The position numbers and the translations under genes are program-made. 54,320 nucleotides of DNA from a virus. Shown here one piece after another: positions 3,957 through 54,064 of this stretch; the first letter of the stretch is position 1; every line of letters begins with the position of its first letter. Under the pieces are notes generated by a model, which saw only the letters and a list, made by a program, of their open reading frames with translations, was not told where the DNA came from and searched no databases. The stretch lies in the UHGV virus genome UHGV-1522278; one strand, 5' to 3'.

Positions 3957-5372
3957 TTAAAAAGATGTGTTATTCTGATTGTTTCGTTGGTTAAAACGGC
4001 TTGTGCGATGATTCATTGACTGAATACACGCGGCGGCGGCGCGAGCCTGGTCGCATGGCAAGATATTACCGTTGTCATCAAACCGCTGGTAAACAGTTCC
4101 AGACTTACCATGACGGTTTTTTGACACAATGATTTCCATATATTCGCGGGCAACAGACTGTTCATCGTAATATCCATCTCGGTAAACCATGATTATCCTG
4201 TCGGCATCTTGCTCAAGGTTGCCAGAATCACGAAGATCAGAATTGTTAGGGCGCTTGTTCGGTCGTTCCTCAACGCGGCGTGACAGTTGCGCCAGCGCCA
4301 ACACTGGTACACGCAATTCTTTCGCCATCATCTTCAACGACCACGACAATTGCCCTACAGCGAGATCGTGACGTTCGGCCTTAGCCAGCTTCATTAACCC
4401 GATGTAGTCAATCATTACCATGCCCAAATTTGGGTGATCCTGTTTCATGCGTTCCGTTGTTGCGCGTATTTCCTCAACCGTTAACTGCGACGCGTCAACG
4501 ATCCACACATCAAGGTTAGCAAGTGCGCTCATGCCCTGGCCGACATGCGCCCACCCCTCATCATCAAGTTTTACCGGATTGCGCAGGCAGTCGGTTGATA
4601 AATTACCAGCGCCAGCGATGGCGCGTTCAGTCATCTGATCGAGTGACATTTCAAGCGTGAAGAACAAAACGCCAACCCGCTGATCTTTACTGCCAGGGTA
4701 AGGGCGTTCAGCGGCAGCGCGGGCAATTGCAAGCGCCAACGCAGATTTACCAGACCCAGGACGTCCAGCTAAAAGCACCAAATCAGTAGCGTTAATGCCG
4801 CCCAACATCTCATCGAGTGGATCTATCCCTGTTTTGATGTTGTCAGAATTAACACCGCATTCCATGCGCTTGCTTAAAACGTCCGTATATTCCTGTACCG
4901 CATCACGCAACAGAACAGGAATGATCTTATCTTTCGTTACCTTTAATTTTGAATACCGGGAATCAAAATCTTTCATCGTCTCTTTGACGACCTCAAGCGT
5001 CCCCGTCTCCAGTTTGTAGCGCATATCGTCGATGAGTTCCAACATCTGCCGCCGCTGGTGCTCTTCACGTAGTAGCTGTGCGTATCCCTTAAGGTTGGCA
5101 GCAGAAGGGCACGAACGCGCCGTTTGCATTAGGGGCACGAAATTTTCATTGCCAATCTCATCGCCAACAAGCAATGCGTCTATCAGATTCCTGTTTCTGG
5201 CTTGCGCCCGGATAACTTCAAACGCACGTTTATAAAGCGGGATCGTGAACACTTCAGGATCAAGCGTGGCGAGAACATCTTGCGCGTTAGGAGTAAGGCC
5301 ACCCAACAACAGCCCGCCGATAACTGACGCCTCACGTTCCTGCCGTAGTGAGTTTATTTGCTCAGTTACCAT
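3957..5372 (-). CDS. replicative DNA helicase, DnaB family
   Basis: 471 aa; Walker A GRPGSGKS and DnaB-like N- and C-terminal regions. Confidence 0.9.
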   Translation of the reverse strand: MVTEQINSLRQEREASVIGGLLLGGLTPNAQDVLATLDPEVFTIPLYKRAFEVIRAQARNRNLIDALLVGDEIGNENFVPLMQTARSCPSAANLKGYAQLLREEHQRRQMLELIDDMRYKLETGTLEVVKETMKDFDSRYSKLKVTKDKIIPVLLRDAVQEYTDVLSKRMECGVNSDNIKTGIDPLDEMLGGINATDLVLLAGRPGSGKSALALAIARAAAERPYPGSKDQRVGVLFFTLEMSLDQMTERAIAGAGNLSTDCLRNPVKLDDEGWAHVGQGMSALANLDVWIVDASQLTVEEIRATTERMKQDHPNLGMVMIDYIGLMKLAKAERHDLAVGQLSWSLKMMAKELRVPVLALAQLSRRVEERPNKRPNNSDLRDSGNLEQDADRIIMVYRDGYYDEQSVAREYMEIIVSKNRHGKSGTVYQRFDDNGNILPCDQARAAAACIQSMNHRTSRFNQRNNQNNTSF

Positions 5373-9159: not shown

Positions 9160-9267
9160 TATGGACTTACCTTGTCTGCAAGTTTACAGAATGGCGTTAA
9201 CAGGTCAAGGATTGAAAAATACATTTTGTGACTTGCATCAAACTTTTTTAGCTTATAGGGTAGCGAC

Positions 9268-9915
9268 ATGAAAACAAAATGGTATGACTTGGCAAAACAA
9301 CTCATGCGGGCGCAGGGCATGAGTCAGGATTCACTGGCTGATCTCATGGGGATAACAAAAGGCGGCTTGTCGCACTGGCTGAACGGTCGCCGTGAGCCAA
9401 ATCTTGAAGATATTGCGCGGATCATGCGGGCGCTTGGGCGTCGGCAATTCACTGTCACACATGATGGGATGGTCATCGATGATTCTGTTTCTAACACGTT
9501 ACCGGGAGCGCCACCGCGTGATTTAGGCAGTTACCCGGTTGTTGACTGGAAGGACGCAGTAAACAATATGGAAGATGCAAGGCGATCAACATTACCACAC
9601 GTTACAACTAGCGTTATTTGTTCTGATGATAGTTATTGGCTGGTAGCTAAAGGCGAATCAATGAACGCTCCGCAAGGATTGAGTATACCAGCGGGGACGA
9701 TGATACTTGTCGATCCGCACGCGCCAGCTATTGACGGCAAACTAGTTATAGCCCAACTGGAGGAAGGGCAAACTCCTACGTTTAAACAGCTTGTTATTGA
9801 TGGAGGTCAAAGGCTTTTACGTTCACTCAATCCGCTGTATCCACCGATCCCTATGAATCCAGAATCTAAAATCATAGGTGTGGTAGTGGATGCGAAGATC
9901 GTAAACCTGCCATAA
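9268..9915 (+). CDS. cI-like repressor (HTH plus S24 LexA-type peptidase domain)
   Basis: 215 aa; N-terminal HTH (SQDSLADLMGITKGGLSHWLNG); C-terminal S24 motifs GESM and a downstream Lys. Confidence 0.88.
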   Translation: MKTKWYDLAKQLMRAQGMSQDSLADLMGITKGGLSHWLNGRREPNLEDIARIMRALGRRQFTVTHDGMVIDDSVSNTLPGAPPRDLGSYPVVDWKDAVNNMEDARRSTLPHVTTSVICSDDSYWLVAKGESMNAPQGLSIPAGTMILVDPHAPAIDGKLVIAQLEEGQTPTFKQLVIDGGQRLLRSLNPLYPPIPMNPESKIIGVVVDAKIVNLP

Positions 9916-9920
9916 ACACT

Positions 9921-9946
9921 AGCCGCCGAATGGCGGCTTTTCTTTG
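9921..9946 (+). terminator. rho-independent terminator after the repressor gene
   Basis: AGCCGCC-gaat-GGCGGCT followed by TTTTCTTT. Confidence 0.6.
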
Positions 9947-10037
9947 CTAAAAAACACCAAAACGTAAACAGAAAACCATGTTTATCATTTAAATATCAAG
10001 TGCTTATAAAATTTTATAAAAAAGTATACAAAATGTG

Positions 10038-10066
10038 TTGACTCGTGTTTTTACGGGGCGTATATT
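10038..10066 (+). promoter_or_regulatory. near-consensus sigma70 promoter (TTGACT - 17 nt - TATATT) flanked by an inverted repeat
   Basis: -35 at 10038-10043, -10 at 10061-10066; TTGACTCG (10038-10045) and CGAGTCAA (10069-10076) are exact reverse complements. Confidence 0.55.
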
Positions 10067-10108
10067 TCGAGTCAAAAGGAGGAAGCAAGGCAGGGAAAGA
10101 AGGTTACT

Positions 10109-10146
10109 TGCTCTTTAATAATCTGGTCAGCCGCTGGAAGTGCGGC
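10109..10146 (+). promoter_or_regulatory. nut-like site: rrn-type boxA (TGCTCTTTAATAA) plus boxB-like hairpin
   Basis: boxA-like 10109-10121; hairpin GCCGC-tggaagt-GCGGC at 10130-10146, in the leader of the rightward early transcript. Confidence 0.45.
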
Positions 10147-10202
10147 AATTAACGAAGATGATTTTTTATTAAGTATCATCAAGGATATAAGGAGATCAGA
10201 TC

Positions 10203-10493
10203 ATGACAGTTACAATCATGTATGGCAAATGTGACAGTAAACTGAATGCCAGGGAACGCAGAAGAATAAAAAGAGAAAACGAAAGAAAATCATCACCTGC
10301 AATTAATAAAACAGACAATGTGGATAAAGCTATTCGCTTTGCAAACGAGGAAAGATGCAAACCAAATAGCATTAAAGAACGTCGCAAAGGAGCAGTAAAA
10401 TGGTATACGGAAAATGAAAGCGGCAACTACTACCACGCAACGCAACCACGCCATTTAGGGGAAAAACCACTTGATAAAGTCCGTTACCATTAA
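10203..10493 (+). CDS. Arg-rich small protein, candidate N-like antiterminator
   Basis: 96 aa, strong RBS AGGAGA; N-terminal Arg-rich motif NARERRRIKRENERK; first gene after the boxA/boxB-like site. Confidence 0.5.
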   Translation: MTVTIMYGKCDSKLNARERRRIKRENERKSSPAINKTDNVDKAIRFANEERCKPNSIKERRKGAVKWYTENESGNYYHATQPRHLGEKPLDKVRYH

Positions 10494-10523
10494 TACAAAA
10501 TGTAAACAGCCGGAGGTGACGTT

Positions 10524-37334: not shown

Positions 37335-37751
37335 TTATCTGAACCTTACTATTTCAATTCTGCCGTTGCCCAAGTCAATGATGGCATGATTTTTTATACC
37401 CGCGCCGCCTTCGTTAAATATTCTTTCAGCAAATGCGGCTTTATCAGCGTTACACTCATTGGCTATTCTGTTTCTTATTTCATCGTTGCCTTCGAATACG
37501 ACGCCTACAGCAGCCTCCTTCACAAGCCCCCAGTTAAACCATCTTGCGTAAACTGGTTTACCTTCGAAATGCTTATCAATTGCTTCATAAAAAACCTTAA
37601 TGGCGGCCGGTTCCTTCTTGAAAATTTTATGGTATTCGGCAACGTTGTTTGCTACTTCATTGCAGTTTATGTTTATTGCTTCGTTTGCATTGGCGTTGAA
37701 TGCCATACCAACCATTACCGCCATCACCGCCGCTTTGATTAACCGTTTCAT
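37335..37751 (-). CDS. secreted protein of unknown function (minus-strand insert in the tail module)
   Basis: 138 aa; signal peptide MKRLIKAAVMAVMVGMAFNANA; two Cys; opposite strand to all flanking tail genes. Confidence 0.65.
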   Translation of the reverse strand: MKRLIKAAVMAVMVGMAFNANANEAININCNEVANNVAEYHKIFKKEPAAIKVFYEAIDKHFEGKPVYARWFNWGLVKEAAVGVVFEGNDEIRNRIANECNADKAAFAERIFNEGGAGIKNHAIIDLGNGRIEIVRFR

Positions 37752-37763
37752 AACCCACCCCGC

Positions 37764-37850
37764 TTAGTTTTTATTTTTAAGTGCTTTCAGCATTTCTTCT
37801 ATAAAGTCGGCATAGTGCTCATGCTCGTTGGGTCGGTAGTAGTTTTTCAT
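37764..37850 (-). CDS. small ORF (28 aa) upstream of the secreted-protein gene
   Basis: GAGGA RBS; 12-nt gap to the next gene. Confidence 0.35.
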   Translation of the reverse strand: MKNYYRPNEHEHYADFIEEMLKALKNKN

Positions 37851-38007
37851 TTTCTTATCCTCTTTTGCTTCCTCCGGTTAATCCGGCCTTTTAAGTCCCT
37901 TCGCTCTATCCCTTTTCTTTATCTTCTTTATACAAAATGTACTCGTTGAAGTGAAGCCATTTTGTATAAAATAGAGACGTGGATCACATTTCGTATGAGG
38001 TTAAATC

Positions 38008-40347
38008 ATGGCTACCAGTTTAGGTACAATTTATTACGAAGTCGATGCAAAAACTGGTCAGCTTCTTGTCGCTCAACGACAGGCAGACCAGGCTTTTGAC
38101 AGTATAGAACGCGGCGCAAAACGTGCTGACCGCCAGGTAAACACACTGAAGACATCAATCAAAGCACTGTCCAGGGTTATACATCTGCTACTTGCCGCAG
38201 AGGCTGTACGCCAGTTTATTGACATGGCGGAGCAAGCAAAAATGCTTCGCGTAAAAATCAAAATGCTTACTGGTGATGCAGAGGTCGCAGGACGTGTTTT
38301 CGATGGCCTGAAAGAAATATCAAAAGAAACCGGGCAAAGCCTGAAGGATACTGGCGAACTATGGCAAGGCCTGGCTATCTCACTGAAGAACACGTCAGCT
38401 ACGGATGGTCAATTGCTTAACCTGGTTGGCACGATTCAAAAGATGGGGGCGTTAGGCGGCGCGTCAGCGGAACAGATGTCTAATTCTATGCGCCAGTTCC
38501 GCCAGTCTATAGACGGTGGCGTTCTTCGTGCCGAAGAGTTTAACAGTCTGCTTGAAAACACGCCGACCATCGTACAGACAATGGCCCGCCATATGGGGTT
38601 GTCAATGGGTCAGTTCCGCGCCGAAATGCTGGACGGCAAGATCACGGCTGAAAGGATGGTTAACGCGATCCAGGCAGCTACACAGGAAACAAACGAGAAG
38701 TTTGCACAGTTGCCTCGCACATCCGGCAAGGCTATCAATGAGCTTAAAGTAGAGGTGATGGGGCTTGTTGAGCAACTGGATGATCTTTTCGGTGTATCAG
38801 ATGGCGTTGTGTCAGCTATCGACCTAATAACTGGCGGCGTTGAGGGATTAGGTAAAGGTGCAAAATTCGCCGCAACCTGTTTCAATACACTCAAAACCGC
38901 TGGCAGCGAGTTTATAGACATGTTTGACGACGTTGCTGTTAAAGCTGGTGAGGTGGCGGAAGAGATTATCAGGATGGTAACGCCAATAAAAGCGCTAATG
39001 GATGGCTACAAATGGATGAAGGAGATCATTGATAAACGCAAGGAAGAGCTAAACAGCAATAACGAGAAGAAATTCGGCCCCACCATTGGCAAATTCATGA
39101 CGTTTAAGAATGACATCGAAAAAGCAACTGCCGCTTATGATGAGTTCATGCAGAAACAGGGTGAGGCTAACGATGGCAAGATCACCGGATTCGATCAGCC
39201 AGTTGGTAAGCCGAAAAAACCGAAAAAACAAAAGAAATCTGAAGCTGATCGGCTTGGTGATGAAGGTATAAAAGTGTCCGACCAGTACAACAAGGACGCC
39301 GCCGCTATGCGTAAAGCACTGGAGAACGGCAAGGCCATTGATGCTGCATTCGCCCAGGGAAAAATAACCCTCCTTGAGTACAAGGCCGCGCAGAAAGGGA
39401 TAGGTAAGGAACTGAAGGACGAATTGGCCCAAATCCCGGTGGAAGAATTGCAAGACAAATGGGCGCACATAGTAAGCCCAATGGATCAACTTAAGGGCGA
39501 AATTGACCCCATCAAACAGGTGCAGAATGAGTGGGCCGTCAAAAAACAAATGCTGATAGACCTGGGCGCTACAGAAGCGCAACAGAAACAGGCGCTTTTG
39601 GAATATGAGCAACAGATACGAGATCTGAAGTGGGAACAATGGCAGGCGCAAAGCGACACGAATAGCCTAATCGGTGCTTGTGTTAGTGGCCTAAAAGGTG
39701 GCATGGGTAATGCGCTCACCGGCCTGTTAAACGGTACTCAATCATTAAGCGAGGTTTTCGCCAACCTGGGAAGCAGTATCCTCAATACCGTTGGCAACAA
39801 ACTATCAGAGATTGCCGCTAACTGGATAGCAGATCAATTGATGATGGAAACGCAAAGCAAGGCTACCCAGGCAAGTACAACTGCTGGCGCTGTGGCGGCG
39901 CAAGGTCAGATTGCTGCGGCGGCGGCCCCGGCTGCGGCTGCAACGGCTGCGTCAACTGGTGGTAGCTGGGCTGCGGCTGGTGCTGCGGCACTTTCTGCGA
40001 TCATGTCGCTGGCAACATCAATTTTTGGCGGCGGGCGTTATAATGGTGGTTCTGTAAATGGTGGCAGCCTGTATCGCGTAGGGGAACACGGGATTCCTGA
40101 GTTATTCCAGACGAGCAACGGGCGTCAGTATATGATTCCTGGGGAAAATGGCAGGGTTATTCCTGGCCGCGATCTCTTCAATGGTGGCGGCATCAATATG
40201 CCTGTTAACATCACAGTACAGACCACAAACGGATTTAGCGACGAAGACGGTCGCAGACTTGAACAGACGATGGAACGCGTAGCAATGAAAATGATGGCAA
40301 GGGAATCGCAACGACCGGGAGGAATGTTGCAACCGCGCCGCAAATAA
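38008..40347 (+). CDS. tail tape measure protein
   Basis: 779 aa; long helical protein with Ala/Gly-rich segment; position before the M/L/K/I/J-like genes. Confidence 0.85.
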   Translation: MATSLGTIYYEVDAKTGQLLVAQRQADQAFDSIERGAKRADRQVNTLKTSIKALSRVIHLLLAAEAVRQFIDMAEQAKMLRVKIKMLTGDAEVAGRVFDGLKEISKETGQSLKDTGELWQGLAISLKNTSATDGQLLNLVGTIQKMGALGGASAEQMSNSMRQFRQSIDGGVLRAEEFNSLLENTPTIVQTMARHMGLSMGQFRAEMLDGKITAERMVNAIQAATQETNEKFAQLPRTSGKAINELKVEVMGLVEQLDDLFGVSDGVVSAIDLITGGVEGLGKGAKFAATCFNTLKTAGSEFIDMFDDVAVKAGEVAEEIIRMVTPIKALMDGYKWMKEIIDKRKEELNSNNEKKFGPTIGKFMTFKNDIEKATAAYDEFMQKQGEANDGKITGFDQPVGKPKKPKKQKKSEADRLGDEGIKVSDQYNKDAAAMRKALENGKAIDAAFAQGKITLLEYKAAQKGIGKELKDELAQIPVEELQDKWAHIVSPMDQLKGEIDPIKQVQNEWAVKKQMLIDLGATEAQQKQALLEYEQQIRDLKWEQWQAQSDTNSLIGACVSGLKGGMGNALTGLLNGTQSLSEVFANLGSSILNTVGNKLSEIAANWIADQLMMETQSKATQASTTAGAVAAQGQIAAAAAPAAAATAASTGGSWAAAGAAALSAIMSLATSIFGGGRYNGGSVNGGSLYRVGEHGIPELFQTSNGRQYMIPGENGRVIPGRDLFNGGGINMPVNITVQTTNGFSDEDGRRLEQTMERVAMKMMARESQRPGGMLQPRRK

Positions 40348-40351
40348 ACAA

Positions 40352-40381
40352 AACCCCGGTACAATGCCGGGGTTATCTTTT
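40352..40381. terminator. bidirectional rho-independent terminator
   Basis: AACCCCGG-tacaatg-CCGGGGTT with T/A-rich flanks on both strands. Confidence 0.55.
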
Positions 40382-40556
40382 AGTTATTCTCAAAACTTGT
40401 ATATCCTCTTTCAATTTTCCCTCCGTGTACACTTCTGGCAAATACCGCGTCAGTATACCTGAAAAATGGGCATGTATATGTATCCCCTTTACTATCCATA
40501 TATTTTAGCACCCACGCCATACGTTTTACGTTGCTTTTATTTGCCGGGTTTTTCAT
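40380..40556 (-). CDS. small protein (58 aa), last gene of minus-strand cassette B
   Basis: GGAGG RBS; MKNPANKSNVKRMAWVLKYMDSKGDTYTCPFFRY... Confidence 0.4.
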   Translation of the reverse strand: MKNPANKSNVKRMAWVLKYMDSKGDTYTCPFFRYTDAVFARSVHGGKIERGYTSFENN

Positions 40557-40574
40557 TTTATTTTCCTCCGCAAA

Positions 40575-40667
40575 TCACAATCTTCCGTTTCTTGCTACAT
40601 AGCTGCGAGCAAACATCACCTGCCAGATGTTCCAGATCTCCCTCCAGGTGAATTTATCGTCATCCAT
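40575..40667 (-). CDS. micro-ORF (30 aa) in cassette B
   Basis: GAGGTGA RBS overlapping the upstream stop; Trp-rich MDDDKFTWREIWNIWQVMF... Confidence 0.25.
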   Translation of the reverse strand: MDDDKFTWREIWNIWQVMFARSYVARNGRL

Positions 40668-40675
40668 ATTTCACC

Positions 40676-40930
40676 TCATTTATGTGCCCCTTTTACGCCA
40701 CAGTGGCGGTTGTATTCCAGATGGTCAATAATTAACCACATCTTTAGATCTTCGCTGAATAACCGCCAATCGGGGTTGATGTCAAATTTATAACCGTAGC
40801 CATCGCGTAATTTTTTGGGGTTGGCCTCTTTTTTCAGGAAAGCATTTAATAAAGCCTTGCCTTTTTTGATGATCCGTTCCTGGGCGTTTTTCTGTGCTTT
40901 CAGGTTTTTGCCAATCATTACCAATTTCAT
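40676..40930 (-). CDS. hypothetical protein (84 aa, Lys-rich N-terminus) in cassette B
   Basis: GGGGTGAG RBS; no motif recognised. Confidence 0.55.
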   Translation of the reverse strand: MKLVMIGKNLKAQKNAQERIIKKGKALLNAFLKKEANPKKLRDGYGYKFDINPDWRLFSEDLKMWLIIDHLEYNRHCGVKGAHK

Positions 40931-40950
40931 AACTCACCCCACGCAATCAA

Positions 40951-41106
40951 TCAGTTGACCACTTTCAGGAAGAAATCACGGTATTCATCTTCTTTTGCAT
41001 TCATCATAAATTGACCGTATTTGAATGCATCATCAAAACCCTTCACAATCGCAACTTCCACCTGTTCGAATGCTTTGTTTAGCATTACCACTACATAGCG
41101 TTCCAT
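40951..41106 (-). CDS. small protein (51 aa), first gene of cassette B
   Basis: AAGGAGG RBS; MERYVVVMLNKAFEQVEVAIVKGFDDAFKYGQFMMNAKEDEYRDFFLKVVN. Confidence 0.4.
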   Translation of the reverse strand: MERYVVVMLNKAFEQVEVAIVKGFDDAFKYGQFMMNAKEDEYRDFFLKVVN

Positions 41107-41275
41107 ATTGGCCTCCTTTGTTGGTGCTGCTTTCTCTTCTTGATTTCTATATACATCTTGTCACGTCATGTGTGAAGCCGTTTTGTAAACTGGGTATAAT
41201 TCTTGTGACAAAGTTCTCATTTTTCGCGTAGAAGCGCGTAAAGATGTATGCAATATGTAACTTATAGGGGGAATC

Positions 41276-41629
41276 ATGCCGGAAGTTTTCAGATGGACGC
41301 CGCAAAGAAGCTACAGCGTGACCAGGGAACCAAATGTGTCAGTCGTTAAACTTGGTGATGGTTATGAGCAAAGGCAGGCAAAAGGTATCAACACATTACT
41401 TGATAGCTACACCCTGGTTTTTAAAGGCAGTAGCGCAGGATGCGGTGATAGCGGGAACGTAGCGATCCAGGCGGAAGCATTCTTGAGGGCGCGCGGCGCT
41501 GTCGAGGCTTTCTACTGGACGCCGTCGATGGATAGGGTGCAAAGGCTTTTCGTTTGCCGTAGCTGGAGTATGACTAAGGACGGACCTGTGTACACGCTAA
41601 ACGCAACGTTTGAACAAGTTGTTGGCTAA
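41276..41629 (+). CDS. M: minor tail protein M (lambda gpM-like)
   Basis: 117 aa; alignable to lambda M (FRW...GDGY.QR......FEQVV). Confidence 0.85.
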   Translation: MPEVFRWTPQRSYSVTREPNVSVVKLGDGYEQRQAKGINTLLDSYTLVFKGSSAGCGDSGNVAIQAEAFLRARGAVEAFYWTPSMDRVQRLFVCRSWSMTKDGPVYTLNATFEQVVG

Positions 41630-41826
41630 TGGAGGTTGTTATGTACGGGACTTGTGTAGTTGACAAAACTGACGCTTTTACATTGTTTGACGACTATGAG
41701 ATCAACGACCTTACTGTAAAGGCTGACAATGGCGATACCTGGTATCTTCATGATGTTGGTGACGGGTATGTGGGATGCAGATCCAGGGAAGGCAAGGAGG
41801 TTTTATTTTTGGTTGATGGCGTGTAA
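41629..41826 (+). CDS. hypothetical protein
   Basis: 65-aa ORF coupled to the M gene stop, followed by a terminator. Confidence 0.45.
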   Translation: MEVVMYGTCVVDKTDAFTLFDDYEINDLTVKADNGDTWYLHDVGDGYVGCRSREGKEVLFLVDGV

Positions 41827-41830
41827 TAAC

Positions 41831-41856
41831 AACCCCGCTTCTCGCGGGGTTTTCTT
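41831..41856. terminator. bidirectional rho-independent terminator (near-identical copy at 50286-50313)
   Basis: AACCCCGC-ttctc-GCGGGGTT followed by TTTCTT. Confidence 0.6.
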
Positions 41857-41857
41857 G

Positions 41858-41995
41858 TCAGTAGTTAATGTAAATCAAACTCATTGGGTGAGCGTGCGCC
41901 ATATTATTGGCTATCGCCGCCCAATCCCAATCAGCAGCGTGAACGCCAAATACTATAAGTCCCATTATTATTAGCGCCAAAACTTCTATTTTCAT
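41858..41995 (-). CDS. small secreted/membrane peptide (45 aa), last gene of cassette C
   Basis: AGGTGA RBS; signal-peptide-like MKIEVLALIIMGLIVFGVHA then a Trp/His-rich tail. Confidence 0.35.
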   Translation of the reverse strand: MKIEVLALIIMGLIVFGVHAADWDWAAIANNMAHAHPMSLIYINY

Positions 41996-42005
41996 AATCT
42001 GTCAC

Positions 42006-42254
42006 CTATAAGTTATCACGCAGATAATTAACGCCCTTATCAGTGACGAATGAATGGTTAACCTGGTTTTCATCCGTCATGATGATGAATAACTTTTCCT
42101 GTAGGTATTTCGCTTTTGGGTACAGTGTTAAACAGACTTGATACAGTATCCCGCGCTCAATCAGCAAATCAATAAATTCGTGTTCATGATAACCGATGAG
42201 GCGGGCGGCCTGTTTCAACGTGTACACATAATCGCCGTGATTGCGCCGCCCCAT
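42006..42254 (-). CDS. hypothetical protein with HTH-like segment (82 aa) in cassette C
   Basis: YTLKQAARLIGYHEHEFIDLLIERGIL resembles an HTH. Confidence 0.55.
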   Translation of the reverse strand: MGRRNHGDYVYTLKQAARLIGYHEHEFIDLLIERGILYQVCLTLYPKAKYLQEKLFIIMTDENQVNHSFVTDKGVNYLRDNL

Positions 42255-42263
42255 GTTGCCGCC

Positions 42264-42614
42264 TTATTTATCGAATGCGCCCAGGTTATCTATGCAGAAA
42301 TCTTTTGCCGCTTTTTCGTATTCGCGTTTTGCTTGCGGATCGTCTGCCGGGAAACCTTTTGCGTGTATTTCACCAGGGCAAGACTGATCCATAGAGTCAG
42401 CAAGGTTAACATTGACATTGAAATTGACATCTTTCGGGTTCATCTCTTCCACCTTATCCGGTACTTGTACTGGAACAACATAATAATAACGAGCATTAGA
42501 CCAACAGCGCAGTAATTCACGACCTTCATCACACGCTGATTCATATGTATCAAATAGCCCCATGCGTTCCCATTCGTATTTATCAGTCCACACGTCTAAT
42601 CTGTATTTTTCCAT
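42264..42614 (-). CDS. hypothetical protein (116 aa) in cassette C
   Basis: no motif recognised; tightly packed with neighbours (9- and 15-nt gaps). Confidence 0.55.
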   Translation of the reverse strand: MEKYRLDVWTDKYEWERMGLFDTYESACDEGRELLRCWSNARYYYVVPVQVPDKVEEMNPKDVNFNVNVNLADSMDQSCPGEIHAKGFPADDPQAKREYEKAAKDFCIDNLGAFDK

Positions 42615-42629
42615 TTTTTGTTATAACCC

Positions 42630-42785
42630 TCATTTGACAGGTTCGATCCTGTACCCCAAAACGCGTTCGTCTTCAGCGAGTAAGAGCGCGTCGGTAAGTG
42701 CCTCGCCTTCATCTTTATACAGGGCCACAGTCATTTTCCTGCCATCCGCAAGGAACACCGTCAACCTCCACACCTTGTCATCCAT
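42630..42785 (-). CDS. small protein (51 aa), first gene of cassette C
   Basis: start at the ATG at 42785 with GGAGGTG RBS; MDDKVWRLTVFLADGRKMTVALYKDEGEALTDALLLAEDERVLGYRIEPVK. Confidence 0.45.
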   Translation of the reverse strand: MDDKVWRLTVFLADGRKMTVALYKDEGEALTDALLLAEDERVLGYRIEPVK

Positions 42786-42913
42786 TTCACACCTCCGCGC
42801 CATTTTGTTAACCATGCTTCCTTTTGAGTACAATATACATATTGTAAAAAACGCGATCAACCGTTTTGGCATGATTTAGCGTGATTTAGATCACAAAATG
42901 ACAAGGTGATAAA

Positions 42914-43618
42914 ATGCGCAGCATACCTACAGAAATGATTATTGATTCCGTGGATGCCGGAGTCGGCGCGGTCATTGACTTATTTGAACTGGACCTCACG
43001 CCCCTGGGTGGCGAGGTTATCCGCTTCCATTCCGGCGCGAATGGTTATTACGGCCCTGTTATCTGGAAGGGATTGGCTTACAACAGCTACCCAATCGAGG
43101 CTACCGGCTTCGAAATGAAAAACGAAGGCGTTTACTCACGCCCCCAAATGGTCGTAGCCAACATTGGCGGCCTAATCACTGGGATGAATAACGATTTTAA
43201 CGACCTGCGAGGAATGAAGGTTACGCGCCGCCAGGTGGAAGTAAAATACCTGGATGCTGTTAACTTCCCCAATGGCAACCCGGATGCAGATCCGTCTATC
43301 GAGGCGGTATCTTTTTACGTCGTTGAGGCGATGAGCGAAGAAACAGCCGACCAGGTGCAATATGAACTGTCAACGCCAATTGATGCTGACAAGGCTGTTA
43401 TCCCTGGGCGCACAATCCTCGCTGACGTTTGCCAGTGGCAATATCGCGGCGACGGTTGCAGATACAGTGGCGGCCCTGTAGCCACTGACAAAGACGAGCC
43501 AACCAGTGATCCGAAGCTGGATAAATGCAGCCACCGCCTGAGCGGTTGCCGTTTGCGATTCCCGCGCCCGAATCCGTTACCGATTTCATGTTTCCCCGGA
43601 TCAAGTAAGGTCGGTTGA
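42914..43618 (+). CDS. L: minor tail protein L (lambda gpL-like)
   Basis: 234 aa; gpL-like sequence with C-terminal Cys cluster (CQWQYRGDGC...CSHRLSGC). Confidence 0.85.
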   Translation: MRSIPTEMIIDSVDAGVGAVIDLFELDLTPLGGEVIRFHSGANGYYGPVIWKGLAYNSYPIEATGFEMKNEGVYSRPQMVVANIGGLITGMNNDFNDLRGMKVTRRQVEVKYLDAVNFPNGNPDADPSIEAVSFYVVEAMSEETADQVQYELSTPIDADKAVIPGRTILADVCQWQYRGDGCRYSGGPVATDKDEPTSDPKLDKCSHRLSGCRLRFPRPNPLPISCFPGSSKVG

Positions 43619-50285: not shown

Positions 50286-50313
50286 AACCCCGCTTCGCGC
50301 GGGGTTTTCTTTT
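50286..50313. terminator. bidirectional rho-independent terminator between J and the lipoprotein gene
   Basis: AACCCCGC-ttcgc-GCGGGGTT followed by TTTCTTTT. Confidence 0.6.
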
Positions 50314-50560
50314 AGTAGTTAGCTACACAGTTAGAAGGGCTACCGATGCGGCGCATGTTGTGATCGAGTTCGTGACACCATTGACCAGTATATGGCAGTT
50401 TTTCAGTGTCATAGACTAGATGCCCGCCACCATCATAAACAACATCTTGCGGAATTACTCCACTATTCGGCAGGTTATGCAATGCAGCCTCTTTGTCAAC
50501 AGAGCAACCAGTAAGAGCAACAGCCGCAGCGAACAAAACCACTTTGAACACGTTTTTCAT
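50312..50560 (-). CDS. lipoprotein, candidate Cor-like superinfection-exclusion protein
   Basis: 82 aa; signal peptide plus lipobox (MKNVFKVVLFAAAVALTGC); convergent with and immediately downstream of J. Confidence 0.7.
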   Translation of the reverse strand: MKNVFKVVLFAAAVALTGCSVDKEAALHNLPNSGVIPQDVVYDGGGHLVYDTEKLPYTGQWCHELDHNMRRIGSPSNCVANY

Positions 50561-50737
50561 TTTTGAACCCTCATTCTTGTTTGTTAATCCGGTTCACCCG
50601 GTGACTTAAATATCCGGCAAAACCACATTTCGTATATTGACACAGATCAACAAATACATTTTGTGTAAGCAGAAAATGCAACACAGATCACAAAATGGTA
50701 GAATTATTCCGTTAATTAACAAAATGGAGTCATCGAG

Positions 50738-53700
50738 ATGATTTACACAACTGGAACAATTGCCATCAGCGGCAATACTGTTACAGGCACGGGCACAAAC
50801 TTTTCCGCGCCGCTTTCTCTTATTCGTGTAGGTTGCACGCTCATTGCTGTTGGCAACCCTGTACAGATCTTTACCATCACGGAAATCAAAAGTGGTACTG
50901 AACTGTCAGTGACGCCAGCGGCTAACCCCGCCATCCCTGCCGGGACAAAATTTAGCATCCTGCTATCTGACTCGATCTCAGTTGATGGGCTTGCTCAGGA
51001 CGTGGCTGAAACCCTGCGTTACTACCAGAGCAAAGAAACAGAAATCGCCTCCGCTGTAGAGTGGTGGGAAGATTTCGGCGGCGAAGGTCAGTTGGATCAG
51101 CTTCTTACCAACATTCGCGCAGAAACAGCACAATCAACCGCCAACGCTCAAAAAACAGAAACTGACAAAAACGCAGCAGAAGCGTCAAAAACAGCGGCTG
51201 CAAAATCTGCCACAGCAGCGAAAACATCAGAAACTAACGCTAAGGCAAGCGAGACGGCAGCGAAAACAAGCGAAACCAACGCCAAAACATCAGAGAACAG
51301 GGCGCAAGAATATCTGAATCAGATAATAAGGTCTAACAACGCATTGGTACAATGCAATTGGCCTGTTACAACTGAAGCCTTTGCCCGTTATGTGAAGATC
51401 GCTAAACTAACCGATCCGGGTGCAGTAAGCTGCCATTTAACACTAATGATCGCCAATGGCGGTAACTACGGTACAAGTTACGGGAATATTGACTTTGTAG
51501 AGATCTCCGCTCGCGGTCTTAGCGATGTGGAAAGCATAACCAGTGAAAATATAACTAAATTTTTAAGTGTTCGCCGCCTCGGATCGCCTAACCTTGCTAA
51601 TGACAACCAAATGCGTTACGGCCTGGTTAAAGGTGACGGCTATATCGAGGTCTGGTGCTACCAGCGAGCTTTTATTAAAGAAACAAAGGTTGCGATACTG
51701 GCACAGACTGGCAGAACTGAATTATACATTCCTGAAGGGTATGTCGTTCAGGAAGCCGAACCCGCTGGATATGTTGAAAGCCCAGCAGCAAGGATTTACG
51801 ATCAGGTAAACAAACCAAGCAAGGCAGACTTAGGCCTTTCTAATGCTATGCTTATAGGCGCTTTTGGTCTTGGCGGCAGCGGTCCGTCATCAAACGGCAT
51901 GATGAGCAATACAGAGCTATTAAAAGCACTGCGTGCAAAAGGTAGTCATTTCTGGCGTGCTGATAAGCCTGACGGAAGCACAGCGACACATTACGCCCAC
52001 GGTTCTGGTATATTCTCTCGGTGCGGTGATACATGGTCGGCGATCAACATAGAATACGAAAATGCCAGAGTTAAGATTTTCGCTGGCAATGATAACAAAC
52101 TTGAAACTGCAACTTATGCCGTAAATGAGCTATACGGAACCAAAAATAAGCCGTCGAAATCTGACGTTGGACTTGGCAACGTAACTAATGATGCGCAGGT
52201 GAAAAAATCCGGCGATATTATGTCTGGCGACCTGGCGGTCTATAAAGATACTCCGTCACTATTCCTTAGGGCAAAAGATGGAGCAGGTGCTGCCGCTGTG
52301 CGGTTTTTCACTGATCAAAACCTGGAGCGCGGCATAATCTATGCTATTCAAAACACTGATACGCTTGGAGAAGTTCGCATTAGGGCTAAAAACGCAAAAG
52401 GTGAAACAAACGGTGATCTTGTTGTTCGCCACAACGGGGTGGTTGAGGTTCAGAATCTCACAGCGGCTAAAAAAGTAAAAAGCGTAAACGCAGAGCTTGC
52501 AAACACATCAACTAACACGCTTGAGAACACGTTAAAAATCAGCGGTCAACAGCATACTCCATTACTTTTAACGCGTACCGGTTATACTGAAAACCTATCC
52601 ATTGGCTTTAAGGTTGACAACCTTGATCAAAAATATCTCGGAATCAATGGCAGTGGAGATCTAGCTTTTGGTAAAAATGCTGATCATAAACAAAACAGCA
52701 GAGTGATTACGCAAGCAATACTGGATAGCGGGGTGACGGTAGGCGGCAAAACAACATTTTCTGACCTTGCCACATTTAACGCAGGTATGGCTGGAGCAAT
52801 TGAGCCTGAAAGCATTTCTGAAGTGGCTGTTGATCTTAATAATCTGACCATAAAAGGCACAGATAAAGGTTCAGTTAAATACTATCACTGCAGAACTGCC
52901 GGAGGCGGTGCAAATATTACCAATAAGCCTGCTGGCATAGGTGGTAACTTTTTGCTTCGTGTAGAGTCAATTCGTAAGATCACGGATTCAGATTATACAA
53001 ACTTGCAAACCCTTGTTGGCACAGACACAAAACAAATATACGTTCGCTATTGTGAAAATGGCAATTGGTCTGCATGGAGTCAGATTGTTGTTTCAGGAAG
53101 AAATCAGGATGTAACCGTCAGGTCGTTAACCTCGACGACTCCATCAAAATTAGGTGGCGGGCGTATTGATGTGCTTGGGAGTACGTCAGATTATAACAGC
53201 ATGAATTGTACCGTGCGCGGTGTTGATAGCAGCGGAACTAATTCTGCGTGGTCAGTAGGCACATCAGTAGACACTGGCAAAATGTTGTTCCTGAAAAACC
53301 ACAGAAGCAGCGCTCAAGTGCTGTTAAATGGCGATGACGGCGCGGTTCAACTACTAAGCGGTACTGTCAACGGTGCTACAGCACAGGCGCTAACCATCAA
53401 CAAAGATGAGGTTAACTCAACTGCTGATTTAGTAATTAGAAAACAAACAGGGACTGGCAATCGTTTTGTTTTACAGAACGCAGGTAATGCAGAACTACCG
53501 TTTTCTGTCAGTGTGTGGGGTTCCAGTACTCGACAAAACGTTTTTGAGGTTGCCACGTCTGCTGCGTATCTGTTTTATGCGCAAAAAACGTCAGCAGGCC
53601 AGTTGTTTGATGTAAATGGCGCTATTAATTGCACAACGCTGAATCAGTCATCAGACCGCGACCTTAAAGACGATATTCTCGTTATCAGCGACGCGACGAA

Positions 53701-54064
53701 AGCAATCCGTAAAATGAACGGATACACCTACACGCTCAGGGAAAACGGGATGCCTTATGCTGGCGTTATTGCACAGGAAGTAATGGAGGCGCTACCGGAA
53801 GCCGTAGGATCGTTTACTCGTTACGGTGAAGAATTGCAGGGTCCGACCATTGATGGCAACGAGCTACGCGAAGAAACGCGTTACCTCAATGTTGATTATG
53901 CGGCGGTGACTGGTTTACTTGTCCAGGTGGCACGCGAAACGGATAACCGCGTCACCAAACTGGAAGAGGAAAACGCCAGCCTGAAAGCTAACATTGCCGC
54001 AATGGATGAGCGTATCGCAAAACTTGAAGCGCTTGTCAGTCAGTTGACCGGAAGCGAAGAATAA
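50738..54064 (+). CDS. side tail fibre protein with C-terminal intramolecular chaperone (S74-type) domain
   Basis: 1108 aa; Thr/Ala-rich SETNAK-type repeats near the N-terminus; C-terminal about 120 aa resemble the self-cleaving chaperone domain and end in a coiled coil. Confidence 0.85.
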   Translation: MIYTTGTIAISGNTVTGTGTNFSAPLSLIRVGCTLIAVGNPVQIFTITEIKSGTELSVTPAANPAIPAGTKFSILLSDSISVDGLAQDVAETLRYYQSKETEIASAVEWWEDFGGEGQLDQLLTNIRAETAQSTANAQKTETDKNAAEASKTAAAKSATAAKTSETNAKASETAAKTSETNAKTSENRAQEYLNQIIRSNNALVQCNWPVTTEAFARYVKIAKLTDPGAVSCHLTLMIANGGNYGTSYGNIDFVEISARGLSDVESITSENITKFLSVRRLGSPNLANDNQMRYGLVKGDGYIEVWCYQRAFIKETKVAILAQTGRTELYIPEGYVVQEAEPAGYVESPAARIYDQVNKPSKADLGLSNAMLIGAFGLGGSGPSSNGMMSNTELLKALRAKGSHFWRADKPDGSTATHYAHGSGIFSRCGDTWSAINIEYENARVKIFAGNDNKLETATYAVNELYGTKNKPSKSDVGLGNVTNDAQVKKSGDIMSGDLAVYKDTPSLFLRAKDGAGAAAVRFFTDQNLERGIIYAIQNTDTLGEVRIRAKNAKGETNGDLVVRHNGVVEVQNLTAAKKVKSVNAELANTSTNTLENTLKISGQQHTPLLLTRTGYTENLSIGFKVDNLDQKYLGINGSGDLAFGKNADHKQNSRVITQAILDSGVTVGGKTTFSDLATFNAGMAGAIEPESISEVAVDLNNLTIKGTDKGSVKYYHCRTAGGGANITNKPAGIGGNFLLRVESIRKITDSDYTNLQTLVGTDTKQIYVRYCENGNWSAWSQIVVSGRNQDVTVRSLTSTTPSKLGGGRIDVLGSTSDYNSMNCTVRGVDSSGTNSAWSVGTSVDTGKMLFLKNHRSSAQVLLNGDDGAVQLLSGTVNGATAQALTINKDEVNSTADLVIRKQTGTGNRFVLQNAGNAELPFSVSVWGSSTRQNVFEVATSAAYLFYAQKTSAGQLFDVNGAINCTTLNQSSDRDLKDDILVISDATKAIRKMNGYTYTLRENGMPYAGVIAQEVMEALPEAVGSFTRYGEELQGPTIDGNELREETRYLNVDYAAVTGLLVQVARETDNRVTKLEEENASLKANIAAMDERIAKLEALVSQLTGSEE

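Follow-up and report, generated by a model that had tools for sequence, protein, structure and literature searches.

Morons, of which gp15 of HK97 and bor and lom of lambda are examples, are among the closest described counterparts of the element considered here, a cassette of four small minus-strand genes (g51, g116, g82, and g45, named for the lengths of their products) that lies between the tail genes M and L in the virus genome UHGV-1522278; in lambda, M and L are adjacent. Throughout, "the window" is the whole stretch of DNA analysed, 54,320 nucleotides (nt) long, and all positions are counted from its first letter. By definition, a moron is an independent promoter-gene-terminator unit between late genes (Cumby et al. 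2012, PMC3594210). The cassette resembles one in having what reads as its own sigma-70-type promoter and terminator, in a G+C content below that of its flanks, in its location between genes that adjoin each other in lambda, and in its variable content. It differs in comprising four genes rather than one, in having a core that is universal in its phage group rather than sporadic, and in being one of three cassettes with a single promoter design, and its expression from the prophage is a prediction.

In P22, the immI region comprises mnt, arc, and ant, with ant encoding a full-length antirepressor and arc and mnt encoding ribbon-helix-helix repressors. The cassette would likewise be a small regulatory operon with antirepressor-type content, situated in the late region and provided with a compact divergent promoter/operator; however, neither a full-length antirepressor nor a ribbon-helix-helix repressor was detected in it, and its orientation to late transcription differs. 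In the Tai/Ati non-contiguous operon of phi80, the lysogen expresses the defence gene constitutively, and counter-defence comes late (PMC11364771). Here, too, an antisense gene set in the late region is convergent with a small late-strand gene, a likeness of arrangement alone; the phi80 site is the lysis-packaging junction instead of the tail-tip genes, and the proteins differ in size and number. With the KilAC antirepressors, finally, the common element is g82, which matches the KilAC model over nearly its whole length. Unlike the two-domain antirepressors, g82 is the domain alone, at 82 amino acids (aa), and it lies in the tail region instead of the early or immunity region; an antirepressor or SOS role for it is hypothetical. 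An isolated KilAC domain, in the Listeria phage protein AriS, suffices to block the SOS response, probably via RecA (PMC9043618); this was the single functional datum found for such a domain on its own.

We read the cassette as a self-contained, moron-like regulatory or interference operon that phages of the mEpimmI group carry antisense to their tail genes, its function being a prediction, and we put the probability of this reading at about 0.55, a confidence that rests mostly on the anatomy of the operon and less on its function.

Genes, promoter, and terminator of the cassette

Among temperate coliphages, the window falls in the mEpimmI group, together with mEp021, mEp554, and their relatives. 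This group has been described as Nus-dependent and non-lambdoid (Negrete-Mendez et al. 2025, PMC11893012) and is reportedly as frequent as the lambdoid phages in human gut E. coli (PMC11893012). An earlier note on this DNA had taken the phage to be lambdoid; it is not a classical lambdoid phage but belongs to the mEpimmI (mEp021) group, whose tail genes are lambda-like despite that status. From position 30000 to the window end (24 kb, the tail genes) it shares 90% identity with mEp554 across 84% of the length. The 1.4 kb around the cassette are 88-94% identical at the nucleotide level to seven GenBank phages, and the cassette region was also matched in prophages of 35 of 5,426 complete E. coli genomes. 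Comparisons were made with the window and 16 annotated loci at first (n = 17) and later with 45 further loci, giving a full set of 61 related loci plus the window (62) drawn from GenBank phages, E. coli prophages, assembly contigs, and IMG/VR. The genes of the interval and those next to it are as follows.

42630-42785, minus strand: g51, 51 aa, first gene of the cassette
42264-42614, minus strand: g116, 116 aa
42006-42254, minus strand: g82, 82 aa, a stand-alone KilAC/ANT domain
41858-41995, minus strand: g45, 45 aa
41276-41629, plus strand: M, Pfam Phage_min_tail
41629-41826, plus strand: ORF65, between M and the cassette
42914-43618, plus strand: L, Pfam Phage_tail_L

All four minus-strand open reading frames (ORFs) of 51, 116, 82, and 45 aa described in the earlier note are present and tightly packed, with gaps of 15, 9, and 10 nt in the order g51, g116, g82, g45, and the G+C content of the cassette is 44.1%, against 51.1% in M and 53.2% in L. 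Judged by how the copies in relatives differ, the four ORFs are real protein-coding genes under purifying selection: by the Nei-Gojobori method, with 10-16 relatives per gene, the ratio of nonsynonymous to synonymous substitution (dN/dS) was 0.20 for g51, 0.14 for g116, 0.10 for g82, and 0.10 for g45 (structural genes for comparison, 0.035 for L and 0.064 for M), and the copies compared contained no internal stops in any of the four frames. Three of the four products have PHROG families, all of unknown function. The earlier note had left room for degraded remnants. The alternative, that the ORFs arose by chance in a non-coding spacer or are decaying remnants there, would accord with the stops found in the g116 head in two to three loci, with the absence of g45 from about a quarter of the loci, and with the fact that PGAP skips some of the small cassette genes in several genomes; however, the selection acting on all four frames, their integrity over dozens of diverged loci, and the three PHROG families together with a Pfam domain above threshold contradict this explanation, which we regard as almost certainly wrong.

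The strong GGAGGTG reported ahead of the first gene was found at 42796-42790, before the ATG of the 51-aa frame, and makes a good ribosome-binding site; those of g45 (AGGTGA) and g82 (AAGGCGG) are adequate. For g116 there is only a weak GAGGG, 12 nt upstream, so the statement that each gene has such a site, which holds for g51, g82, and g45, was slightly overstated. The longest ORF of g51 beginning with ATG would encode 80 aa, but conservation is limited to the 51-aa core, the N-terminal extensions being variable.

Homologous cassettes occur in mEp554, mEp013, mEp515, mEp044, mEp010, mEp021 (mEp021_71 to mEp021_74), MagusPhagus, and mEpimmI prophages of E. coli, and they are like that of the window in site (M/ORF65 to L), orientation, promoter, and terminator. 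None of the 62 loci lacks the cassette; what varies is g45, the complement of extra genes, and the first gene. An extra gene of 77-93 aa is found in the cassettes of mEp021, UMNK88, and N25, and an extra 67-aa gene in those of strain 127 and N25; MagusPhagus and others have the cassette without the 45-aa gene; and in STEC308 and MFDS1019527 the first gene is a different one and the N-terminal domain of g116 is broken. In three loci g51 is replaced by an unrelated gene with the g116 tail retained. The hotspot for accessory genes that the earlier note proposed is thus borne out to the extent that genes have been swapped, added, or lost among the 61 related loci, but not for the KilAC gene and the g116 tail, which are present in 62 of 62. 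No paralogue of the cassette was found elsewhere in the phage, no product has a characterised homologue, and none matched a known defence-system, toxin, or NCBIfam model.

Hypothetical proteins encoded by the cassette are already annotated in GenBank (seven phages and many prophages), so its sequence is not new. Of the cassette, the published account of the group mentions only a KilAC-like protein, listed with the conserved genes: in its manual analysis, a "phage antirepressor protein KilAC-like" was found in all 48 genomes (PMC11893012). In the literature searched, three points are apparently unreported: the module shared by three cassettes, the head-tail organisation of g116, and the possible kinship of g51 with the g116 head.

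The control elements assigned to the cassette are the following.

42832-42868, minus strand: promoter module, consisting of CAAAACGG, TTGATC (42860-42855), a 17-nt spacer, and TATATT (42837-42832)
42829-42846: 18-bp palindrome TACAATAT-AC-ATATTGTA, overlapping the -10 hexamer and containing TATACATATTGT
42801-42808: CATTTTGT, left octamer copy, within the 5' leader of the predicted minus-strand transcript and overlapping a plus-strand -35-like TTGTTA
42893-42900: ACAAAATG, right octamer copy, upstream of L
41831-41851, both strands: G+C-rich hairpin terminator, common to the convergent M-ORF65 unit and the cassette

The predicted promoter is of the sigma-70 type and is conserved. Its -35 and -10 hexamers are invariant or nearly so among the 17 loci, the module was located in 57 fetched sequences, and a promoter scan picked it up; the core of the 128-bp spacer between g51 and L has a nucleotide diversity of 0.073, as against 0.11-0.34 at the third codon positions of the neighbouring genes. 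The 18-bp palindrome lying over the -10 hexamer occurs only once in the window and is nearly invariant among relatives, and we consider it a candidate operator. A plus-strand promoter candidate for L (TTGTTA, 18 nt, TACAAT) also lies within the module; at the equivalent positions upstream of H and M there are no plus-strand promoters, whereas in the minus orientation promoters form upstream of H, M, and L alike. Divergence from L, a separate promoter region, and a final terminator shared with the plus-strand M unit all agree with the earlier description. Of the inverted motif pair CATTTTGT/ACAAAATG described there, both copies are present in the window, but only the left one is conserved, being invariant in the 17 loci, while the right one varies among relatives. 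We therefore dropped the idea that the pair forms a site-specific inverted repeat, the right arm being unconserved and the octamer occurring genome-wide. LexA control has a precedent in the antirepressor operons of the Gifsy phages (PMC3121763), and Gifsy-style control of the cassette was likewise rejected: no CTGT-N8-ACAG box was seen by eye in the conserved intergenic region, a search that involved no formal test.

The terminator, given as bidirectional and as 41831-41856 in the earlier note, is a hairpin at 41831-41851 that folds on both strands (z -2.3 and -3.8) and is kept in relatives, in which the loop may be flipped and the flanks are A-rich and T-rich; the same hairpin is listed as a two-way terminator in the annotation of mEp021. 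In the window, however, the minus-strand U-tract is weaker, and the terminator scan called the plus strand only. Known RNA families gave no match at E <= 1 within 40000-43500.

The cassette proteins and the convergent ORF65

The helix-turn-helix-like segment that the earlier note saw in the 82-aa product is supported by both sequence and model. Against Pfam PF03374 (ANT/KilAC), g82 scores 29.9 bits (gathering threshold 25.3; E = 7.4e-7), with residues 10-82 matching positions 23-105 of the 108 in the model; relatives in its cluster carry precomputed PF03374, the PGAP orthologue is named "phage antirepressor KilAC domain-containing protein", and the predicted model suggests a MerR/excisionase-like winged helix-turn-helix fold. 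No gene of the interval is better conserved (74-100% identity in 62 of 62 loci, the window included). A Bro-N, AntA/AntB, pRha, or KilA-N partner is absent from both g82 and the upstream g116, nor does the window contain another KilAC copy. By tblastn, g82 is 32-38% identical to the C-terminal parts of antirepressor/Rha proteins of Vibrio, Cronobacter, and Hafnia phages. A one-genome-per-species GTDB search returned no relatives of g82, and IMG/VR returned only the same phage group; the GTDB result thus offers no evidence for spread beyond E. coli phages. As to the well-characterised homologues that the earlier note had named as a point against its proposal, the sole family found is Pfam KilAC, itself poorly understood in function, so that such a homologue exists in a weak sense. 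Synonymous diversity in g82 is low (0.11 at third positions, against 0.22-0.34 in the neighbours; dS of 0.31, against 0.64-0.90 in L and M), which suggests either recent spread by recombination or an extra constraint at the nucleotide level.

The product of g116 is divided into two parts of very different conservation.

42444-42614, minus strand: N-terminal domain (head), residues 1-57, beta-beta-alpha-beta, hypervariable
42264-42443, minus strand: C-terminal module (tail), residues 58-116 and the stop, acidic, ..DSMDQSCPGEIHAKGFPADDP.AKREYEKAAKDFCIDNLGAFDK

Residues 1-52 were modelled with high confidence as beta-beta-alpha-beta, and no segment of the interval varies more than the head (40-98% identity, diversity 0.31). 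The tail begins at a nearly invariant Met58, has 22 invariant columns including C79, C107, and F88-P89, and is found in 62 of 62 loci at 72-95% identity; in the two to three loci in which the head contains stop codons, the tail persists as an ORF of its own. A 56-aa stand-alone homologue of the tail (..DSMDQTCPGELHIKGYPVDNP..) lies at 5001-5171 of locus L062, the 58-kb ENA contig k141_561431, which comes from an unrelated phage with a Mu-type portal and in which the gene stands among small genes without a family match; its occurrence there makes the motif a mobile mini-module. A natural variant, P0048, joins two tandem heads to one tail, and its cassette consists of that protein and the KilAC gene only.

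The first gene may be related to the head of the second. The product of g51, which is acidic and matches phrog_29559 (its family comprises 49 clusters), aligns end to end with the g116 N-domain (hhalign, P = 3e-4, probability 39%) and may have the same fold, and both g51 and the g116 N-domain are highly diverse among relatives. In a Foldseek search of BFVD, the best match of the g116 head was a small, uncharacterised protein of the DUF7336 type, 59 aa long, from Escherichia phage 2725-N35 (27% identity, with E = 7.5e-4 and a target TM-score of 0.77), yet neither DUF7336 nor any other Pfam family matched the g116 head or g51 by sequence at E <= 1. Sequence searches of Pfam, NCBIfam, PADLOC, and PDB gave no match to g51 or g116. 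In 1.84 billion representatives, a profile search recovered the g116 family itself and a few fragments but no remote homologue, and a search of 5.8 billion proteins with g51 and g116 found close relatives only, all named sources being E. coli or uncultured phage. The name "transporter" that PGAP gives to g51 has no family model or domain behind it, and we set it aside as an annotation artefact.

The earlier note had assigned an apparent signal sequence to the 45-aa peptide, and its hydropathy agrees: g45 has hydrophobic residues at 3-18 followed by VHA|AD, a grand average of hydropathy (GRAVY) of 0.93, and a hydropathy peak over residues 1-20. It is a hydrophobic micro-protein whose N-terminus may act as a signal peptide or membrane anchor. 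Variants of 45 and 38 aa occur, the N-terminal segment is highly conserved, and the gene is missing from ∼17 of the 62 loci. On the opposite strand, ORF65 is convergent with the cassette, inserted between it and M without a counterpart between lambda M and L. Its product is likelier to be 61 aa long (ATG at 41641, after GGAGG), is acidic (isoelectric point, pI, 4.1), and matches phrog_3249; the gene is annotated in the mEp phages and was found in every one of the 62 loci. The protein might assist tail assembly in an accessory role, or it might be expressed late as a partner to the cassette.

This arrangement raises the question of prophage interference after the manner of Tai/Ati, with the minus-strand genes blocking a superinfecting phage at tail-tip assembly or DNA entry and ORF65 providing late self-protection. 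The antisense placement and the convergent, small, conserved late-strand gene sharing a terminator with the cassette would fit, as would the hypervariable domains, the optional membrane peptide, and the proximity to the tail-tip genes M and L, and phi80 supplies the precedent of constitutive defence with late counter-defence (PMC11364771). However, PADLOC-DB v2 contained no family matching the four cassette proteins or ORF65 at E <= 1, the Tai proteins are far larger (26 kDa) and were compared by arrangement only, and ORF65 might equally be an ordinary tail-assembly accessory protein; we consider this explanation unlikely.

A promoter design common to three cassettes

The earlier note spoke of two independent insertions flanking M, but there are at least three minus-strand cassettes in the tail region, upstream of H, M, and L, and they carry one promoter module. 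The pattern CAAAAYGG, 0-1 nt, TTnAnn, 17 nt, TATAnn has exactly three copies in the 54-kb window (42868, 41185, and 37964), all on the minus strand and each heading a minus-strand cassette, and the regions upstream of the three cassettes align across ∼55 bp. As read from the window, minus-strand cassettes are a repeated architecture of the tail region. The corresponding features outside the M/L interval are these.

41148-41185, minus strand: module of the first cassette, CAAAACGGC, TTCACA, 17 nt, TATATA
37927-37964, minus strand: module of the unit upstream of H, CAAAATGGC, TTCACT, 17 nt, TATAAA
40380-41106, minus strand: first minus-strand cassette, in the slot upstream of M
38008-40347, plus strand: H, the tape-measure gene
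after L, plus strand: K, I, and J
9268-9915: CI-like repressor gene, HTH_3 and Peptidase_S24, adjoining the early promoter

The same design recurs in the immunity region. The early rightward promoter (10029-10066), ACAAAATG-TG-TTGACT-(17 nt)-TATATT, has the layout of the cassette promoters. The element TATACAnnnTGT, with 5 copies against 0.46 expected, stands at all three cassette promoters (including 41150 and 37929) and at the early promoter (10025). More widely, the octamer ACAAAATG/CATTTTGT has 18 copies, compared with 4.65 +/- 2.1 expected genome-wide, of which ∼15 are intergenic, often directly upstream of -35 hexamers or as inverted pairs; it occurs in pairs or groups at 9222/9274, 17455/17520, 37932/37958, 42801/42893, and 50657/50690/50719, and singly at 10028, 10495, 22555, 23192, and 34269. 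It is likely a phage-wide regulatory site and might serve as an operator for a repressor, as an activator site, or as an UP-like element. The motif GATCACA(AAATG) is also recurrent in the window. The common promoter elements argue for co-regulation of the cassettes and for a tie to the phage's own circuitry, and because one promoter design serves three cassettes and the early promoter, joint regulation is predicted.

A rival reading, possible if doubtful, is that the three cassettes are repressor-controlled early operons, switched on with the early genes at infection or induction and encoding host-takeover or anti-defence proteins instead of functions expressed in the prophage. The cassette promoters share the [A]CAAAAYG, -35, 17 nt, TATAWW layout with the promoter beside the CI-like repressor, TATACAnnnTGT is present at that promoter and at all three of theirs, and ACAAAATG, an enriched octamer, lies mostly between genes. 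Anti-defence genes typically encode small, acidic proteins that diversify fast, and the stand-alone homologue of the g116 tail lies within a run of small family-less genes in another phage. However, operators for the repressor are putative here, the shared motif may be a mere A-rich, UP-like element of strong promoters, and TATACAnnnTGT stands upstream of the -35 hexamer in the early promoter but over the -10 in the cassette promoters. The ParE-like toxin gene of the neighbouring cassette also fits poorly. ParE-like toxin genes are usually expressed constitutively.

That neighbouring cassette, the first of the two flanking M, encodes a 51-aa acidic protein (40951-41106), then an 84-aa basic protein (40676-40930), then further small genes. 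The basic protein matches Pfam ParE_like PF24732 (E = 6e-12, above threshold) and its PGAP orthologue is named "ParE family toxin-like protein", so that the cassette is toxin-antitoxin-like in appearance; in relatives, the same slot is also occupied by HNH endonuclease or zinc-ribbon genes. By analogy, g51 and g116 might form an addiction pair, antitoxin and toxin respectively, since both cassettes open with a 51-aa acidic protein with a second gene close behind, their promoters are homologous, and one of them has the ParE_like match. In contrast to a toxin of that kind, g116 is acidic (pI 4.55), and no toxin or antitoxin domain was matched in g51 or g116 with Pfam, NCBIfam, or PADLOC. The two 51-aa proteins have no detectable similarity, and hhalign did not support the product of 40951-41106 as a paralogue of either g51 or the g116 N-domain. 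A single protein with two heads replaces g51 and g116 in one variant, which is unusual for such pairs, and g51 has been swapped in three loci while the g116 tail stays. An addiction pair is accordingly very improbable.

The unit upstream of H (37335-37751, minus strand) encodes a product of 138 aa that has a signal-like N-terminus and lacks a Pfam match; gene and module are shared with mEp021 (mEp021_63), and a possible 28-aa ORF (∼37769-37850) precedes the gene. The immunity region (9268-10500) consists of the repressor gene, then a hairpin, the early promoter (TTGACT-TATATT, 10038-10066), and a 96-aa gene (10203-10493) whose product is weakly N-peptide-like; flanking the early promoter are a perfect 14-bp palindrome, TATAAAATTTTATA (10005-10018), and TTGACTCG/CGAGTCAA arms. 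Farther downstream, 50312-50737 contains a minus-strand gene for an 82-aa lipoprotein (MKNVFKVVLFAAAVALTGCS...), divergent from the side tail fibre gene (50738-54064) and probably the Lpp-type superinfection-exclusion protein described for mEpimmI phages. The spacer between these two genes holds three ACAAAATG copies and GATCACAAAATG and forms a fourth divergent regulatory region of the tail module.

Predicted role of the operon

On the reading that we prefer, a moron-like regulatory or interference operon, host RNA polymerase would transcribe the four genes independently of the late tail genes, late plus-strand transcription would run antisense to the cassette and oppose it, and all of the cassettes would be regulated in common through their shared promoter elements. 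The regulatory or effector core would be g82, which may bind DNA through its winged helix, the palindrome at its own -10 being a candidate site, or may instead act on a host protein such as RecA, as the KilAC domain of AriS does in the SOS response. The acidic beta-beta-alpha-beta heads of g51 and g116 would then be binding modules in rapid diversification, by which the conserved acidic tail is delivered or controlled, and heads and tail together would act against a variable partner, belonging either to the host or to a competing phage. The net role would be to modulate host or phage physiology (control of induction, or interference) and not to build the virion. The anatomy, taken together with these postulated steps, leads us to favour a regulatory or interference role over a structural one.

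Several points weigh against this reading. The promoter and the timing of expression, whether in the prophage or early in the lytic cycle, are predictions from sequence only, and the level of g116 translation is uncertain given its weak ribosome-binding site. The KilAC domain has no settled biochemical activity, and the AriS datum, an analogy, comes from a distant Gram-positive protein. The g116 tail was modelled with low confidence, so a role as part of a binding module is a guess, and the proposed kinship of g51 with the g116 N-domain is weak (hhalign probability 39%). Finally, a KilAC gene and a g116 tail that are universal in the group would fit a core phage function equally well.

A broader proposal would divide the tail region into successive late-gene units (H; M-ORF65; L-K-I-J), with a divergent cassette of early-promoter-like design ahead of each and the M/L cassette as a new small-protein system (KilAC protein, hypervariable adaptor, and acidic effector tail) that controls induction or blocks competitors, possibly with ORF65 providing self-protection. 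We find this quite doubtful. As it stands, the cassette is an ordinary, uncharacterised accessory operon already in public annotations and not a new type of system.

The analysis nevertheless turns a block of "hypothetical protein" entries into a defined four-gene operon with a candidate promoter, operator, and terminator, in which the variable head and invariant tail of g116 suggest an evolving interaction. Should it prove true that the KilAC protein modulates the SOS response or the repressor, or that the cassette excludes other phages, the operon would bear on prophage stability and on competition among phages in the gut.

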